Positions 26,399-43,021 of a DNA stretch of 64,000 bases are shown here, one piece after another; the first letter of the stretch is position 1; each line of letters begins with the position of its first letter. The DNA comes from an uncultured Ignavibacteriales bacterium (GTDB taxonomy: Bacteria > Zixibacteria > MSB-5A5 > GN15 > FEB-12), in NCBI GenBank assembly GCA_964571235.1, contig CAZNAI010000002.1, positions 2,837 through 66,836 of the forward strand. Reading direction: 5' to 3'. A program made the translations under genes and the position numbers. Below the pieces are notes generated by a model. That model made no database searches and was not told the DNA's origin. It saw only the letters and a list, made by a program, of their open reading frames with translations.

Positions 26399-29109
26399 GT
26401 GACCGAAAGACTCTATACCTATTCGACGGCTCCGCCCTGTTTTATCGGGCCTTCTTTGCATTTATCCGAAATCCGCTCATAAATTCAAAAGGGGAGAACA
26501 CTTCAGCGGTGTTCGGATTTACCAACTCGGTGTGGAAAGTAATCAAAGACGAGAACCCCGATTATCTGGCGGTCGTCTATGACACCAAAGAACCAACCTT
26601 TCGCCACGACAAGTATCCCGACTACAAATCGCACCGGGCGAAAATGCCCGATGAATTAGTCGCGCAGTTGCCTCGTATTCGCGAAGTTGTCCAGACGCTG
26701 AAAATTGCGGAAGTCGAAATGCCGGGATTTGAAGCCGACGACCTGATCGCTACGCTCGCGCGCCGGGGAGCCAAAGAAGGGCTTGAGGTCTGGTGTGTGA
26801 CCGGCGACAAGGACTATTTCCAGCTCGTGACCGACCAAATCGGCATCTACCATATATCAGGTGGCTCAAAAGGGGAGAAGATGCGTTCGGACGAAGTCTT
26901 GGCCAAATTCGGGGTTCGTCCAGAACAGGTTGTCGACAAGCTGGCGCTCATGGGCGATAGCTCTGACAATATTCCAGGAGTACCCGGTATCGGCCCCAAA
27001 ACCGCCGATTCATTGCTGGCTCAGTTCGGTTCGCTTGACAAGATCTTGGCCAATAGCGAAAAAATCAGCGCTAAAGGTGTGCGCGAGAAGATCGCCGCAA
27101 ATAATCATCTGGCAACGCTTTCGCGGGAACTCGTGTCGCTTCAGGCCGATGCTCCAGTTGACTTACCAATCAGCGAGTTGGCCCGCCAGCCCCTCGATAC
27201 TCAGGCCGTTGCGAAGCTCTTTTCGCATTTGGAATTCAATACCCTTCTCAAGGAGATTGTGCGGGACGCACCTGCCGCCCCTAATCTATTTCCAGCCTCA
27301 GGGCCGAGCGCGAAGTACTGGACTGTCACGTCGATTGAGCATCTGAAAAAGATCGTCAGAGAATTTTCTGAAAAGAGAGAAATCGCCGTTGACACGGAGA
27401 CTACCTCTACCGATGCCCTCACCGCCAAGTTAGTCGGTATCTCGCTGTGCGACCGGGCGGGGGAGGCATACTATCTTCCGGTGGGTCACTCGGTGGACAC
27501 AGACCGAAATCTCCCGCTGGATCAATCGCTGGCAGTCCTGAAACCACTGCTTGAAAATGAAAAGGTCCAGAAGATCGGGCAGAATATTAAGTACGACTGG
27601 CACTTGTTCAACCAACTTGGCATTGACATCAACCCGATTTCCTTCGACACCATGATCGCGGCATATGCGCTCGATCCGGGTAGCCGACAGCTTGGCCTTG
27701 ATGCGCAGGCGCTCAAATACTTCGACTATCAGATGCAACCAATAACCGACCTAATCGGTTCAGGTAAAAACCAGCGTACGTTTGACTCAGTGCCGATTGA
27801 AAAAGCCACCTTCTACGCCGCCGAAGACGCCGACTACACCTATCGCCTGAGAGGTAAGCTCGCCCCCAAACTCGATGAACTGGAGCTTAACGACCTGTAC
27901 TATAACATCGAACTTCCGCTAATCCGGGTTCTTGCGCAAATGGAAGCGGCTGGCGTTCGGATCGACGCAAAGTTTCTTGGCAAGCTATCAGTCGACATGG
28001 ATAGACGAATGGAAGAACTCCAGCGCCAGGTCTTTTCGGCGGCGGGCATGGAGTTCAATATCAACTCGACCCAGCAACTGTCGCACATCCTATTTGAAAA
28101 ACTCGGGCTACCCACCAAGGGGAAGACTGCCAAGAAGACCGGCTTCTCAACCGATGTAGGCGTGCTGGAAGAACTGTCGAAACTACACCCGTTTCCGAAG
28201 TTGATTTTGGATTACCGACAGTTGACAAAACTGAAATCGACGTACATCGATGCACTTCCCCTGTTAATCAACAAGCAGACCGGGCGAGTGCATACGTCGT
28301 TTAATCAGACGATTGCCGCCACCGGACGGTTGTCCTCAACCGATCCGAATTTGCAGAATATTCCGATCCGGACCGACGAAGGTCGACAGATCAGAAGAGC
28401 ATTTGTGCCGCGTGACGAGGATCACGTCCTGTTGGCCGCCGACTATTCACAAATTGAGCTACGAATATTGGCGCACTACGCTGAAGACGCAGTCCTGATT
28501 AAGGCATTTCAGGAAGGTGAGGATATCCACGTCCGCACAGCCGCCGAAGTTTACGGCGTAGAGCTTGCCGGGGTGACATCGGATATGCGCCGGGTGGCGA
28601 AGACCGCCAATTTTGCGATAATCTACGGCGTTTCCGCCTATGGTTTGTCACAGCAGACCGAAATGGACGTGGCTGAAGCTAAAGAATTCATAGATCGGTA
28701 TTTTTCCCGGTATCCGGGGATCAAGACCTACATCGATAGCACCAAGAAATTCGCCAAGGCCAACGGGTACGTGACCACGTTGTTTAATCGTCGCCGGTAT
28801 CTGCCGGAGATCAACGACCGGAATTTCAATGTCCAGCAGTTCGCCGAGCGGACCGCAATCAACACCCCGATTCAGGGGACCGCCGCGGATATTATCAAAA
28901 AAGCAATGATCCAGATTCAGGCTAAACTTGAGGGGCTTCAAACCAAAATGGTTCTGCAAGTGCACGACGAACTGGTGTTCGACGTCTATGAGAAGGAACT
29001 CGAGCAAGTGAAGACAATCGTCCGTCAAGGGATGGAGAAGGTCATCAAGCTCAAAGTGCCATTAGTCGCCGACATGGGAGTGGGCCAGAACTGGCTCGAG
29101 GCCAAGTAG
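26395..29109 (+). CDS. polA: DNA polymerase I
   Basis: 5' nuclease domain, 3'-5' exonuclease DTET motif (IAVDTETTS), and polymerase motifs DYSQIELR, RRVAKTANFAIIYG and QVHDELVF. Confidence 0.97.
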   Translation: MSDRKTLYLFDGSALFYRAFFAFIRNPLINSKGENTSAVFGFTNSVWKVIKDENPDYLAVVYDTKEPTFRHDKYPDYKSHRAKMPDELVAQLPRIREVVQTLKIAEVEMPGFEADDLIATLARRGAKEGLEVWCVTGDKDYFQLVTDQIGIYHISGGSKGEKMRSDEVLAKFGVRPEQVVDKLALMGDSSDNIPGVPGIGPKTADSLLAQFGSLDKILANSEKISAKGVREKIAANNHLATLSRELVSLQADAPVDLPISELARQPLDTQAVAKLFSHLEFNTLLKEIVRDAPAAPNLFPASGPSAKYWTVTSIEHLKKIVREFSEKREIAVDTETTSTDALTAKLVGISLCDRAGEAYYLPVGHSVDTDRNLPLDQSLAVLKPLLENEKVQKIGQNIKYDWHLFNQLGIDINPISFDTMIAAYALDPGSRQLGLDAQALKYFDYQMQPITDLIGSGKNQRTFDSVPIEKATFYAAEDADYTYRLRGKLAPKLDELELNDLYYNIELPLIRVLAQMEAAGVRIDAKFLGKLSVDMDRRMEELQRQVFSAAGMEFNINSTQQLSHILFEKLGLPTKGKTAKKTGFSTDVGVLEELSKLHPFPKLILDYRQLTKLKSTYIDALPLLINKQTGRVHTSFNQTIAATGRLSSTDPNLQNIPIRTDEGRQIRRAFVPRDEDHVLLAADYSQIELRILAHYAEDAVLIKAFQEGEDIHVRTAAEVYGVELAGVTSDMRRVAKTANFAIIYGVSAYGLSQQTEMDVAEAKEFIDRYFSRYPGIKTYIDSTKKFAKANGYVTTLFNRRRYLPEINDRNFNVQQFAERTAINTPIQGTAADIIKKAMIQIQAKLEGLQTKMVLQVHDELVFDVYEKELEQVKTIVRQGMEKVIKLKVPLVADMGVGQNWLEAK

Positions 29110-29134
29110 CTTTTGCGATGAGGTTTTGTGACCG

Positions 29135-29773
29135 ATGCGAACATCGCTTGCTGTCATATTGCTCTCTTTCTGCTCGGTAGTCGGACAGGCCAATTCGGCC
29201 ACATCCGACTGGAGTGATACGCCCAAATACACAGAGCCAAGAGTTCAAGGAATTGTCGCAATTGGCTGGCGATTTGATCACGAAGAGCTTGGCCATGTTC
29301 CAGTGGTGGACTTTGGTGCGTTAGTCAGAGTAGCGCGACCACTCTTTCTTCAGACGCGTGTATCTGTCCAGCCCGAACAAACTTCGTTCTTTGTTACCAA
29401 CCTCTCGATCGGATCAATTGCCATTGGCCCAAGAGTACAAACGGTCTCTCGACGGTTTGGCGCATTCGGATCGGCCGAGATTGATTATTCCTGGTATTTT
29501 GGAAGCACAGCGCTGTATTCAGCCGATTCAAATAAGATCGTTAGCCGCGTTTCAACGAGGAGCTTTAAAACTGGATTGGCCCTGACTGGCGGCTTTTGTT
29601 TTCGAGTAGCGAGCTGGCTTGCGATTGATTTCGGTGTGCGAAAGGTATTCAATTCTGCGCGTTCATATGTCATCGTTGAATCACCAATTCCTCCCGGGGG
29701 CTTGTTCTTTTGGCCCTTTCCCCACGACACTTACAATCAAGCGACCATATTCTTGCAGGCCCGCATTCTCTGA
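29135..29773 (+). CDS. hypothetical outer-membrane beta-barrel protein
   Basis: Signal peptide (MRTSLAVILLSFCSVVGQANS) and alternating beta-strand-like segments. No family assigned. Confidence 0.45.
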   Translation: MRTSLAVILLSFCSVVGQANSATSDWSDTPKYTEPRVQGIVAIGWRFDHEELGHVPVVDFGALVRVARPLFLQTRVSVQPEQTSFFVTNLSIGSIAIGPRVQTVSRRFGAFGSAEIDYSWYFGSTALYSADSNKIVSRVSTRSFKTGLALTGGFCFRVASWLAIDFGVRKVFNSARSYVIVESPIPPGGLFFWPFPHDTYNQATIFLQARIL

Positions 29774-37582: not shown

Positions 37583-37649
37583 ATGTCGAATTCTCTCGCT
37601 GACGCCCGACCCCGTTTGCGGCGGGGCATGGGGTTTCGACCTACAAGAC
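37583..37649 (+). repeat. hairpin module copy 1 (ATGTCGAA ... TTCGAC-CTACAAGAC)
   Basis: Outer stem gtcgaa (37585-90) pairs with ttcgac (37635-40). The inner hairpin is ccccgtt-tgc-ggcgggg. About 58 of 67 positions match copy 2 in a hand alignment. Confidence 0.7.
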
Positions 37650-38690: not shown

Positions 38691-38797
38691 GTTTAGATGT
38701 CGAAACCTCTCGCTACGCTCGACCTCGCCTGCGGCGGGGCAAGGGATTTCGACCTACAAGACTGGGGGCAGGCAGGAAGCCTGCCGCCCACGACGAA
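38691..38797 (+). repeat. hairpin module copy 2 plus a GGCAGGC-aggaa-GCCTGCC hairpin
   Basis: ATGTCGAAA (38697-705) ... TTTCGAC (38747-53) CTACAAGAC (38754-62). The 22-nt gggcaggcaggaagcctgccgc at 38766-38787 is identical to 40796-40817. The block is flanked by tggctttgcttcc at 38678-90 and 38798-810. Confidence 0.7.
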
Positions 38798-40523: not shown

Positions 40524-40530
40524 ATCAAAA

Positions 40531-40602
40531 TACCCCCGTTAGGAATCGAACCTAAATTTCCGGCTTCGGAGGCCGACGCGCTATCCGTTGCACCACGGGG
40601 GC
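40531..40602 (-). tRNA. tRNA-Arg (anticodon CCG)
   Basis: The reverse complement GCCCCCGTGGTGCAACGGATAGCGCGTCGGCCTCCGAAGCCGGAAATTTAGGTTCGATTCCTAACGGGGGTA folds as a cloverleaf. It has a 7-bp acceptor stem, D arm GTGC/GCGC, anticodon stem TCGGC/GCCGG with loop CTCCGAA, and T arm TTAGG-TTCGATT-CCTAA. CCA is not encoded. Confidence 0.93.
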
Positions 40603-41302
40603 AATTCTGTGCGTTGCCCACAAGGGCCCTTCGACTGGCTCAGGGTGACTTTTGCGGGCGGGGTATCAGATAACATAAAACGCGCGTGAAGGCAAGGAGG
40701 GATTTAAAGAGCGTCAGGTCACGCTCGGCGAGCGCCGAGACTAAGACCTGACACAACGATCAAGGCAAGCGGCAAAGAGGAGCGCGGAGCGAGACGGGCA
40801 GGCAGGAAGCCTGCCGCACACGGGAACATAACCCGAAATGGGCTACCAAGCAGTGCAGGCTCGGGGACGAGCCTGCCCTACGAAGAGTAAGAGAATCTTT
40901 GAGTTTGATTTGGAAGGCGGGGGGTGTATCTTAATGAGCTAAGAGAGAAAGGCGGGTTCGAAGACGGACCCGCCCTACAAGAAGAAAGAAAAGAGCCCAC
41001 CATGAATGGTGGGTTACCAGGGCGAAGAGAATAAGATGTCGGGTTTCTTGTCCCGCTTTCGCGGGACTGCGGAACACCGACCTACAAGAAAAGATGGATT
41101 CCCGCCTGCGCGGGAATGACATCGGTTAGAGGTTAAGAGAAAATGTCAGGATCACAAGGATCCTGACCTGCAAAAGACATGAAACAAGATGGCGGGTTCC
41201 TGTTTTCGCGGAAATGACAGGAATAAGAGACCCTTCGACAGGCTCAGGGTGAAGTCATAAGAAATGTCAGAGTGAATTCATTGAAAAAGACTGAGAACTA
41301 AT
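40603..41302. repeat. 700-nt BIME-like array of GC-rich hairpin modules with conserved single-stranded flanks
   Basis: At least 8 distinct stem-loops with recurring AAGAGA..ATGTC, CTACAAGAA and AAGATGG...AATGAC flanks. The array is bounded by the 22-nt direct repeat cccttcgacNggctcagggtga (40627-48 and 41221-42). No credible ORF. Confidence 0.7.
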
Positions 41303-43021
41303 ATGAAATGGTCGCAGACGTACATTCCGACACTGAGAGAGAAACAGACCGACGCTGAGCTGATCTCGCATCAGCTCCTGTTGCGCGGGGGATACATTCG
41401 AAAATTAGCGGCGGGGGTTTACTTGTACCTTCCGCTCATGCAAAGAGTGATCGAAAAGTTCTCGCAGATTGTGCGCGAGGAAATGAATCGGGCTGACGGG
41501 CTTGAAATCACCATGTCGGTGCTTTGTCCGGCCGAGGTCTGGCAACAATCGGGTCGGTATGACACGATCGGCAAAGAGCAGATGCGACTCAAGGACCGTC
41601 ACGCGCACGATATGGTTTTGTGCGGCACGCATGAAGAGTCGGTGACGTATCTGGTGGCCGGCGAGGTGAAAAGTTACAAGCAGTTGCCGCTTCACTTATA
41701 TCAGATTCAGGTGAAGTTTCGTGATGAGATTCGTCCGAGGTTTGGCCTCATGCGCGGACGCGAGTTTATCATGAAGGATGCGTATACGTTCGACGCCGAC
41801 CAGGCGTCGTTTGATAAGACCTACAAGAAATTGGTGGATGCCTACTTTGCGGTTTTTAAACGGGCGGGGCTTGAAGTCTTAAAAGTTGAATCGGACACCG
41901 GCGCGATGGGGGGAAAAGCGGCGCACGAGTTTATGCTCTTGGTCGATACCGCGGCGGGGGAAGAGATTATTATCTCGTGTCCGTCGTGCGGGTACGCGGC
42001 CAATGTCGAGAAAGCGACATTCAAAGATAATTCGAAAGTCGCAATGGATTCGGAAATGAAGCCGATGCAGGTGGTCGATACACCGGGAGCGGCAACGATT
42101 GAGCAAGTGACGGCATTTTTGAAAGTAGACTCGAGCCGGTTGGTCAAGACGCTGATCTACATGGCCGACGGCAAACCGGTGGCGGCATTGGTGCGCGGGG
42201 ATCGCGATCTGAATGAGACGAAACTCAAAAATGCGGTGAAGGCGGTTGATCTGGAGATGGCGAACGCCGGGCAGGTTGAGCAAGTGACCAAGGCGCCGGT
42301 TGGATTTGCCGGACCAGTCGGATTGTCGGGAGTGACATTGGTGGTCGATCCACTGGTGGCACAGCTTAAGAATTTCGTTGTCGGCGCTAATCAGAATGAA
42401 AAGCACATTGTGAATGTGAATATCGATCGGGATTTCAAAGCGACCATCGTGACCGATTTGAGCAAAGCGCAGGGGGGAGACCTTTGCCCGAATTGCTCTG
42501 GTACTTTGACCGCCAAAGATGGAATCGAGGTCGGCAACACATTCCAGCTTGGGACCAAATATTCCGTGCCGCTTGGCGCGACATTTTTGGACGCGGAAGG
42601 GAAAGAACATCCGATGCTGATGGGGTCGTACGGGATCGGGATTACCCGAACGCCGCAGGCGGCGCTTGAGAAATATCACGACGACAAGGGGATCATTTGG
42701 CCGAAAAATATCGCGCCGTATCTGGTTGAGCTGATTCCGGTCAATCAGGAGAAAGAAAACTTGGTCTCGGCGGCTGAGCAAATCTACGCCGAACTAACCA
42801 AAGCCGGGATTGAAGTGCTTTACGACGACCGGCCGGAGCGTGCGGGGGTGAAATTCAACGACGCCGACCTGATCGGTTTGCCTATCCGTGTGACGGTTGG
42901 CGATAAGTCGTTGAAGGACGGCAAGGTAGAACTGAAATCGCGGGCGTCGGATCAGGTCGCGCTTGTGGATTTAGGGGAAATTGTAGAGGCGGTCAAAAAA
43001 CTGGCCGAGGGGCTTCGTTAG
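41303..43021 (+). CDS. proS: proline--tRNA ligase (bacterial type with INS editing domain)
   Basis: MKWSQTYIPTLRE, class II motifs (FRDEIRPRFGLMRGREF, GSYGIG) and the inserted editing domain. 572 aa. Confidence 0.97.
   Translation: MKWSQTYIPTLREKQTDAELISHQLLLRGGYIRKLAAGVYLYLPLMQRVIEKFSQIVREEMNRADGLEITMSVLCPAEVWQQSGRYDTIGKEQMRLKDRHAHDMVLCGTHEESVTYLVAGEVKSYKQLPLHLYQIQVKFRDEIRPRFGLMRGREFIMKDAYTFDADQASFDKTYKKLVDAYFAVFKRAGLEVLKVESDTGAMGGKAAHEFMLLVDTAAGEEIIISCPSCGYAANVEKATFKDNSKVAMDSEMKPMQVVDTPGAATIEQVTAFLKVDSSRLVKTLIYMADGKPVAALVRGDRDLNETKLKNAVKAVDLEMANAGQVEQVTKAPVGFAGPVGLSGVTLVVDPLVAQLKNFVVGANQNEKHIVNVNIDRDFKATIVTDLSKAQGGDLCPNCSGTLTAKDGIEVGNTFQLGTKYSVPLGATFLDAEGKEHPMLMGSYGIGITRTPQAALEKYHDDKGIIWPKNIAPYLVELIPVNQEKENLVSAAEQIYAELTKAGIEVLYDDRPERAGVKFNDADLIGLPIRVTVGDKSLKDGKVELKSRASDQVALVDLGEIVEAVKKLAEGLR

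Follow-up and report, generated by a model that had tools for sequence, protein, structure and literature searches.

A very probable BIME-like mosaic of REP and Ssn-type hairpin repeats between tRNA-Arg and proS in a Zixibacteria genome

Results

The tRNA-Arg/proS spacer contains eleven dispersed hairpin elements

We analysed a 64,000-nt stretch of DNA from an uncultured Zixibacteria bacterium (hereafter the window; positions 2837-66836 of contig C2), and within it the 699-nt spacer that separates two divergent genes, one for tRNA-Arg(CCG) and the other, proS, for prolyl-tRNA synthetase. The genome (G000) comprises 3.17 Mb in 10 contigs (C1-C10) and has a GC content of 53.5%. The spacer is packed with hairpins, and our results indicate that it is very probably a mosaic, resembling the bacterial interspersed mosaic elements (BIMEs), of non-autonomous single-stranded DNA (ssDNA) hairpin repeats, in part repetitive extragenic palindromes (REPs) and in part repeats of the Ssn nuclease type. 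The spacer has the following borders; orthologs of proS in relatives are 66-96% identical.

40530 to 40603, minus strand: tRNA-Arg(CCG), left border of the spacer (ARAGORN; Rfam tRNA model, 60.5 bits)
41303 to 43021, plus strand: proS, prolyl-tRNA synthetase of 572 aa, right border of the spacer (from the list of open reading frames)

An earlier sequence-only reading of this DNA had described the spacer as free of open reading frames (ORFs), and indeed the ORF list holds none in it longer than 63 aa. When Rfam covariance models were run up to E = 10, the tRNA alone passed, and all other matches lay far below the gathering scores. Folded as ssDNA, the spacer reaches -125.6 kcal/mol, compared with -89.4 +/- 4.9 in dinucleotide shuffles (z = -7.4). 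Its plus strand is rich in purines. Read on the minus strand, the segments 41145-41167, 41098-41117 and 40996-41013 each consist of a hairpin followed by a T-rich run and score as intrinsic terminators.

A whole-genome BLAST of the spacer, combined with per-base coverage, resolved 11 elements (E1-E11) that together occupy about 56% of its length. Copy numbers were obtained by iterated nhmmer for most elements, and by BLAST and regular expressions for E1, E3 and E10.

40627 to 40649, plus strand: E1, loop-conserved hairpin CCCT-TCGACNGGCTC-AGGG ('PFDxLRV' element), found by BLAST; family motif GAGC-N2-4-GTCGA
40711 to 40757, plus strand: E2, composite hairpin CGTCAGGTC...inner hairpin...GACCTGAC-ACAAC (nhmmer, about 11 copies)
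40794 to 40822, plus strand: E3, hairpin GGCAGGC-AGGAA-GCCTGCC with a GCACAC tail (BLAST, about 33 copies)
40842 to 40886, plus strand: E4, GTAG-tagged REP, hairpin-CTAC on this strand, stem 40855-40876, CTAC 40878-40881 (nhmmer, about 22 copies)
40945 to 40985, plus strand: E5, GTAG-tagged REP GGCGGGTTC-GAAGAC-GGACCCGCC-CTAC (nhmmer, about 62 copies)
40991 to 41023, plus strand: E6, hairpin CCCACCA-TGAA-TGGTGGG with tail TTACCAGGGC (nhmmer, about 64 copies)
41035 to 41088, plus strand: E7, composite GTAG REP with foot GTCGGGTTTC/GGAACaCCGAC and inner hairpin GTCCCGC-TTTC-GCGGGAC, CTAC 41082-41085 (nhmmer, about 68 copies)
41094 to 41121, minus strand: E8, NTS/CGTC-1-type hairpin TGTC-ATTCCCGC-GCAG-GCGGGAAT-CCA (SRM pattern match; nhmmer, about 27 copies)
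41140 to 41174, plus strand: E9, short GTAG REP GTCAGGATC-ACAAG-GATCCTGAC with the decayed tag CTGC (nhmmer, about 44 copies in its subfamily group)
41190 to 41220, minus strand: E10, degenerate E8-type copy TGTC-ATTTCCGC-GAAAA-CAGGAAC-CCGCCA (BLAST and alignment of congeners)
41229 to 41256, plus strand: E11, second copy of the loop-conserved hairpin (GACCCTTCGACAGGCTCAGGGTGAAGTC) (nhmmer, at least 77 copies)

All eight stem-loops listed in the sequence-only reading are present. Its coordinates are right up to about 40880 and 10 nt too low from about 40900 onwards, so that its sequences stand and several positions move: ggcgggt/acccgcc lies at 40951-40974, cccacca/tggtggg at 40996-41013, and the second of two 22-mers at 41231-41252. 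The tandem units of 90-105 nt that it proposed do not form a true tandem repeat, since Tandem Repeats Finder reported nothing in the spacer; the tagged elements share one orientation, head to tail, at irregular spacing.

We found that every hairpin of the array is a member of its own dispersed multi-copy family (11 to 77 copies by nhmmer). Copies are divided about evenly between the strands, for example 28 plus and 34 minus for E5, 31 and 33 for E6, and 31 and 37 for E7. Between 17% and 53% of family bases fall within crude ORFs in 10 of the 11 families, and 63% in the family of E2 with its 11 copies, compared with 91% for the genome. E4, E5, E7 and E9 are GTAG-tagged REPs: read from the opposite strand, the order hairpin-CTAC becomes GTAG-hairpin, the format of the GTAG REP superfamily. 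Their families number 22-68 copies each and overlap crude ORFs by 17-31%; E4, E5 and E9 have 9-bp stems and 4-6-nt loops. Stretches of 28-32 nt of E5 recur identically in other genera, and its 28-mer is found almost only in metagenome-assembled genomes labelled Zixibacteria/GN15 or unclassified.

The families of E2 and E6 likewise combine covarying stems with fixed tails, the E6 stems including CCCACCA, CCCAACC, CCCACCC and CCCAGCA. The family of E3 has the tail consensus GCGCAC, and the array copy is 2 nt shorter. Decay is also visible in E7, with a 1-nt insertion in its 3' foot, in the CTGC tag of E9 and in the degenerate E10; such copies fit with neutral accumulation. Elsewhere in the window, we recovered the further module copies reported at 37583, 38697 and 57850. 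The E3 family has one more copy in the window, GGCAGGCAGGAAGCCTGCC-GCCCAC at 38766-38793, which stands directly after the REP at 38697-38762 and so forms a junction of two families.

CTAC-tailed hairpins keep their flanks and covary in their stems

CTAC proved to be the tetranucleotide most enriched after perfect 9-bp hairpins in this genome, at 7.7 per 1000 against a median of 0.48, and exceeded even TTTT, the signal of terminators (9-bp arms were used, 7-bp arms being too noisy). The genome holds 255 CTAC-tailed hairpins with common flanks, which fall into at least 16 stem subfamilies, among them GTCGAAAC, GTCGGGTT, GTCGGGTA, GGCGGGTT, GTCACCCG, GTCGGGAC, GTCAACCC, GGCAGAAC, GTCAGCCT and GGCAGGAG. 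The flank consensus, drawn from 248 CTAC-tailed hairpins, reads aAaGAT upstream and CTAC(a/g)A(a/g)ga downstream.

For a non-circular test of the stems, we picked sites by their tag alone, with the pattern G[TG]C-N17-G[AC]C-CTAC. At 65 of 100 such sites all six inner positions were Watson-Crick paired, compared with 0-2 for five control tails; in these the 5' arm took 12 different forms, and the loop, RCARG, was conserved. Among the 96 distinct sequences, 88% of cells were paired (70.8% in shuffles), and changes on both sides occurred in 163 cells (53 in shuffles). The covariation score was 0.469 against 0.178 in shuffles, a value that none of 500 shuffles reached, and sliding the arms as a control brought pairing down to 19-52%. 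These data bear out, for the genome as a whole, the proposal of the sequence-only reading that conserved flanks surround compensated stems.

Some stems keep a fixed irregularity. REP subfamilies with a GAAGAC loop retain a C-A mismatch at stem position 6 (GTCACCCGC/GCGAGTGAC and GTCAACCCC/GGGATTGAC; for example C3:89988-90015 and C1:324787-324814), which is a G-T pair on the GTAG strand, and the GGCGGGTTC/GGACCCGCC REP retains a T-G mismatch at position 8. The C-A mismatch may be a recognition feature for an enzyme.

By spacer type, 23 CTAC REPs lie between divergent genes, 75 between convergent genes and 89 in unidirectional spacers, divergent spacers being about as numerous as convergent ones. 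In unidirectional spacers, 55 of the 89 are oriented such that an mRNA would carry the form GTAG-hairpin-U-rich. Pairs of CTAC REPs comprise 42 dimers with the tags outside (19-24-nt spacers), 22 tandem pairs and 11 tail-to-tail pairs. The genome contains about 1,126 non-coding repeat intervals in about 394 clusters, among which the array, with nine intervals, ranks fourth to eighth. Clustering by 15-mers chained many families into a single cluster and serves for density only; a clustering with 12-mers was dropped, as chance matches dominated it. The array had been called unusual, and this holds for its place in a disfavoured divergent spacer and for its high rank, but not for its kind: dozens of comparable mosaics exist elsewhere in the genome.

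RAYT genes are bracketed by REPs, including the family of E7

A search for genes of REP-associated tyrosine transposases (RAYTs) upheld the suggestion of REP/BIME-like mobile palindromes in the sequence-only reading. The genome has six PF01797 genes, of which five are intact and one carries an in-frame TAA, and each is bracketed by inverted copies of a hairpin repeat. The five intact proteins score 96-145 bits with the NCBIfam model NF047646, 'REP-associated tyrosine transposase' (cut-off 80), and PF01797 likewise scores above its cut-off. One RAYT aligns over its full length to E. coli TnpA-REP (PDB 4ER8; E = 3.8e-23), and the alignment keeps both the HUH motif (HLH/HMH) and the tyrosine motif (DYIHYNPVKHG/DYIYINPVKHG).

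Importantly for the array, the RAYT gene at C3:200867-201346 is flanked by the family of E7, with GTAGGTCGGGTTCC... upstream and ...GATGTCGGGTTTC...GGAACCCGACCTAC downstream. Eight homologs of this RAYT (50-62% identity), each from a different relative and spread over several genera and families, retain the GTAGGTCGGGTTCC.../...GGAACCCGACCTAC foot and differ in the inner hairpin; three more distant homologs have the feet GTCGGGTA, GTCAGGAGC and GTCGAAAC. The RAYT at C3:175734 has the GTCGAAACC family on its flanks. The gene at C1:268171-268680 is flanked by GTCGAAACCTCTCGC...GGGATTTCGACCTAC REPs, related to the GTCGAAACC family; it aligns over 148 residues apart from its TAA stop and is probably a pseudogene. 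This GTCGAAACCTCTCGC family also includes the copies at 37583 and 38697 of the window. A more divergent RAYT, at C3:672482, has flanking repeats in the format of E3. The REPtron architecture, a RAYT gene with its own inverted REPs, is thus seen for the family of E7; three further RAYT genes, including the stop-interrupted one, show it with REPs of their own.

Outside this genome, a RAYT of the related genome G005 (locus L025) is flanked by a short type like E9. Inverted pairs of E4, E5 or E6 were found to enclose only a RidA-like gene and one for a membrane protein, which we regard as coincidental neighbours and not as partner enzymes. On C7, about 150-210 nt upstream of the RAYT frame 28756-29202 (minus strand), a GTCATCCTGAGCTTGTCGAAGGAC hairpin sits within the loop of a GTCGTTGCGAGGAGC...GCGACGAAGCAATCTC hairpin; such nesting suggests insertion into hairpin loops.

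Small GIY-YIG genes accompany other hairpin classes

Small GIY-YIG nucleases (Ssn) have been reported to bind and cut repeats of the E8 type as ssDNA, and their genes are flanked by the repeats (Chenal et al. 2025; PMC11893778). We found E8, which occupies 41094-41121 on the minus strand, to be an exact match to the pattern published for the Ssn-related motif (SRM), HGTCWYN(0-2)YYVSBRHN(0-5)WNVSBRGN(0-2)RNCYNB; E10 does not match it. Genome-wide the pattern has 69 matches, compared with 14-19 in shuffles. The genome encodes five small GIY-YIG proteins, and hairpin repeats flank four of the five genes.

C4:22879-23097: small GIY-YIG gene, followed by an E8-type repeat
C10:121906-122130: small GIY-YIG gene, flanked by TGTCACCCCGAC-type hairpins
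C3:833904-834122: small GIY-YIG gene, flanked by TGTCGTTGCGAGG...GCAATCTC-type hairpins
C3:714246-714545 (also given as 714252-714467): small GIY-YIG gene with CGTCGCCTC-GAGCGGAGTCGA-GAGGTGACG, the loop class of E1 and E11, on both sides
C6:74138-74353: small GIY-YIG gene which, like its orthologs, is without flanking repeats

At the first three of these genes, which are candidates for the Ssn type (cd10448), the flanking repeats are of the TGTC-hairpin type. None of the NCBIfam models matches the small GIY-YIG proteins. The C10:121906 protein shows a weak match to a UPF0213 structure, and the C3:714246-714545 protein is of the UPF0213 type (match to 1zg2, 3e-13).

The latter gene leads to E1 and E11, which differ from each other by one mismatch. 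The sequence-only reading took the 22-mers within them for the bounds of the array; they are instead two copies of another dispersed and cosmopolitan hairpin class. The consensus is GTCACCCTGAGCTTGTCGAAGGGTGA, and the loop motif GAGC-N2-4-GTCGA occurs 338 times in the genome, against about 72 expected by simple arithmetic. Hairpins of the form GTCACCCT-GAGCNNGTCGA-AGGGTGA lie within 260 nt of a UPF0213-type gene or homolog in 10 of 13 loci examined, which come from G000, its four congeners, G007, G008 and G012. Loci noted for this hairpin class include L061, L104 and L173-L182. The exact 22-mer CCCTTCGACAAGCTCAGGGTGA occurs on more than 119 contigs, with outer stems that covary; its hosts span more than 12 phyla and include Nitrospirota, Chloroflexota, Bacteroidota, Eremiobacterota, Patescibacteria, Clostridia and Proteobacteria, among others. 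A GIY-YIG gene is present at 2 of 119 loci with the 22-mer, which by count is no enrichment; at both, four copies surround the gene, on both sides.

Neither E1 nor E11 matches the SRM pattern, as their conserved loop of 11-12 nt, GAGCNNGTCGA, falls outside it. For this reason, and because the nuclease is of the UPF0213 type, we do not file them as SRM repeats, although they may work in much the same way. Our literature search with the spurious peptide strings and the DNA core found no paper on the loop-conserved element. Tentatively, and with more doubt than belief, we raise the idea that E1 and E11 are an undescribed cosmopolitan target of an ssDNA nuclease, with a near-invariant 11-nt loop (GAGCTTGTCGA) and a freely covarying stem, spread over more than 12 phyla and partnered with a UPF0213-type GIY-YIG protein and not with the Ssn clade. 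If this is true, mosaics would arise because hairpins of the RAYT and GIY-YIG types insert at common sites, for which the aAGAT flank that both carry may be the target.

The spacer grew by independent insertions

The sequence-only reading had proposed a comparison of array length among relatives, and this comparison was informative. The adjacency of tRNA-Arg(CCG) and proS is kept across the order. In five relatives the spacer is free of repeats and measures 161-169 nt (G020, G014 and G017) or 191-196 nt (G008 and G010), against the 699 nt found here. Spacers of 264-401 nt with unrelated sequence occur in another three genomes of the family; that of G005 has two small hairpins of other kinds. 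Within the genus, G004 has a spacer of 352 nt and G002 one that exceeds 600 nt; the contig of G003 ends within a REP, 56 nt upstream of proS. In one family of the order, in G019 (L039) and G013 (L040), tRNA-Arg(CCG) is inverted, lying on the proS strand 56-85 nt upstream.

The three congeners share only two islands of non-repeat backbone and one REP/NTS-like pair, corresponding to E9 and E10; all else differs in family and order, and we saw no target duplications where the spacers of the congeners carry insertions specific to one species. E9 is probably orthologous to the first REP past the promoter in G004 and G002. Because the distant spacers are repeat-free and the congeners carry different sets, we conclude that independent insertions built up the array and that it does not represent a conserved RNA. 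The two islands contain promoter-like hexamer pairs that, from their conservation in the genus, are candidate promoters.

40667 to 40695, minus strand: putative tRNA-Arg promoter TTGCCT-17 nt-TATCTG, in a non-repeat backbone island aligned to G004 and G002
40905 to 40932, plus strand: putative proS promoter TTGATT-16 nt-TATCTT, in a backbone island common to the congeners; TATCTT also in G018

A consensus promoter scan missed both candidates, and the proS one matches 8 of 12 positions. More distant relatives have a TTGACA box where the promoter-like hexamers of the congeners stand. If these pairs serve as the tRNA-Arg and proS promoters, E1 would lie in the leader of the pre-tRNA and E2-E4 between both promoters, while a proS leader some 360 nt long would contain E5-E11. 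E1 sits between tRNA-Arg and its putative promoter, and G004 is without E1 at that place.

Discussion

Our results point, with high probability, to a BIME-like mosaic of REP and Ssn-type hairpin repeats between tRNA-Arg and proS. We propose that the ancestral promoter spacer measured about 160-190 nt and that separate insertions piled up in it. Most probably a RAYT, a relative of E. coli TnpA-REP and like it a Y1 HUH transposase, would bind both the GTAG tag and the folded hairpin while the DNA is transiently single-stranded, and would cut and rejoin, spreading copies in trans. Recognition of a folded hairpin plus a fixed tag and foot is established for TnpA-REP and for SsnA (PMC2817692, PMC3733652, PMC11893778). 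Since such an enzyme would read the hairpin and the fixed foot and tag, flanks would stay constant and stems would change only in a compensated way, giving rise to many stem subfamilies. E3 would represent a second RAYT-linked class, marked by the GCGCAC tail; E8 and E10 would be NTS/SRM-type hairpins and as such ssDNA targets of small Ssn-type GIY-YIG nucleases; and E1 and E11 would belong to the loop-conserved class that flanks the UPF0213-type GIY-YIG gene. By analogy with these systems, the RAYT and Ssn-like enzymes of this genome are predicted to move or cut the copies of the array. Any effect on expression would be secondary.

Several points weigh against this interpretation. The proposed mechanism draws on homology and gene architecture. 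The flanks of the six RAYT genes of this genome include none of the stem types of E4, E5 or E9, so that these elements need mobilisation in trans or are relics; for E2 and E6 we found no partner enzyme. The array is entirely head to tail, unlike the alternating BIMEs, and it lies in a divergent promoter region, a context that REPs avoid in this genome. A regulatory RNA role in the proS leader may also exist.

This last point is the core of the strongest alternative, in which the spacer encodes a functional structured RNA, either a long 5' leader of proS or small RNAs that act in attenuation, mRNA stabilisation or protein sponging. The covariation of the stems is significant, as such an RNA predicts; E5-E11 would be transcribed in the leader if TTGATT-16-TATCTT is the promoter; some subfamilies contain G-T pairs, with a recurrent C-A mismatch at one stem position; and REPs of E. 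coli do act in the 3' ends of mRNAs (PMC3733652; bioRxiv 10.64898/2026.03.23.713779). The sequence-only reading had likewise entertained an RNA family. It is nevertheless highly improbable: Rfam gave no match even at E = 10, each family is split about evenly over the strands, and the CTAC REPs counted lie mostly between convergent genes. Moreover, the leaders of congeners carry other elements and those of more distant relatives carry none, so that content differs even between species of one genus; several copies are decayed; and dedicated DNA enzymes exist whose genes are flanked by the repeats.

Still less probable is that the hairpins are ordinary intrinsic terminators or insulators which shield the tRNA gene and proS from read-through and resemble one another by convergence. 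Three of them do look like terminators on the minus strand, since their purine-rich 5' flank reads there as a T-run, and CTAC REPs prefer convergent spacers genome-wide. However, no transcription runs towards the array, because both flanking genes point away from it, and convergence cannot account for shared tags, loops and 20-60-nt feet at 85-100% identity at hundreds of sites and across genera; termination would be a secondary use at best. Finally, conventional miniature inverted-repeat transposable elements (MITEs), which are deletion derivatives of DDE insertion sequences with terminal inverted repeats and target-site duplications, share with these elements only that they are short, non-coding, dispersed and intergenic, and we give them the least credence of all, since the elements measure 23-55 nt, far under MITE size, consist each of one hairpin and an asymmetric tag instead of terminal inverted repeats around a core, inserted without visible target duplications in single species, and flank genes for Y1 HUH and GIY-YIG enzymes.

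If the spacer is the mosaic of REP and Ssn-type repeats that we propose, such arrays should be masked as repeats in annotation, and not called as tiny ORFs (peptides such as MDSRLRGND and PFDRLRVT) or as candidate riboswitches. The series of spacers from 161 to 699 nt in one order shows that REP-type elements colonise even a promoter region between divergent genes and, probably, an essential gene's leader. The locus would also extend the REP/RAYT and Ssn-like repeat systems to Zixibacteria; our literature search found no report linking REPs, RAYTs, CGTC/NTS repeats or Ssn nucleases to this phylum. This one genome combines six RAYT genes with five small GIY-YIG genes and over 1,000 repeat intervals, and offers a test bed for how many hairpin types each enzyme serves.

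Comparison with known systems

In the sequence-only reading the function of such hairpins was called unexplained. This is outdated: GTAG REPs are tied to RAYTs (PMC2817692, PMC3733652), and hairpins of the GCGGGAATGAC type to Ssn nucleases (PMC11893778). The GTAG REP superfamily is defined by a GTAG tag plus a hairpin (PMC3733652), and a published REP table includes GTAGGTCGGCCTTCAGGCCGAC (PMC2817692). Known REPtrons are the REP/BIME elements of E. coli with TnpA-REP (PDB 4ER8), the REPINs of Pseudomonas and GTAG-5 (GTAGGTCGGCCTTCAGGCCGAC) of Thioalkalivibrio (PMC2817692, PMC3733652, PMC3116915). As in these, the REPs of the array are short, GC-rich, imperfect palindromes with a GTAG tag and complementary stem changes, present in hundreds of copies with an extragenic bias and in clustered mosaics; similarly, RAYT genes are flanked by inverted REPs, and one genome holds several REP families and several RAYTs. 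In contrast to them, at least 16 stem subfamilies here face four GTAG-type RAYT genes (one stop-interrupted), the conserved 5' flank is extended (aAaGAT), the host phylum is Zixibacteria, and this array occupies a divergent promoter region and probably a 5' leader, not 3' ends. BIMEs alternate in orientation, and head-to-tail REP dimers are reported to be rare (PMC3733652). Our array is neither alternating nor regularly spaced, unlike a strict E. coli BIME, and for this reason we use 'BIME-like mosaic' as a description and not as a claim of membership.

E8 resembles the dRS3/NTS/SRM repeats of Neisseria (PMC11893778) in its (C/T)GTC tag, its 8-bp stem starting with AT, its 4-nt loop and its CCA tail. 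Its core, ATTCCCGC...GCGGGAAT, is the same as that of Neisseria dRS3/NTS, and on the minus strand it has the CGTC-1 REP format of Di Nocera et al. 2013. As in the Ssn systems, small GIY-YIG genes here, which may be of the Ssn type, have such repeats on both sides. Unlike the Neisseria NTS, copies are modest in number (27 of the E8 type; 69 SRM matches) and nuclease activity is predicted from the genes; each of several GIY-YIG paralogs is paired with a hairpin family of its own, and the repeats are interleaved with REPs of the RAYT type.

REPs, RAYTs, CGTC/NTS repeats and Ssn nucleases were all known already, and what the present analysis adds is modest, namely the comparative series at one locus. 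As in the mosaic intergenic regions of Neisseria and Stenotrophomonas (PMC3733652), unrelated repeat families share permissive intergenic sites. Here, in contrast to those regions, other families in another host are involved, and the growth of the spacer, from about 160 to 699 nt, is traceable across relatives.

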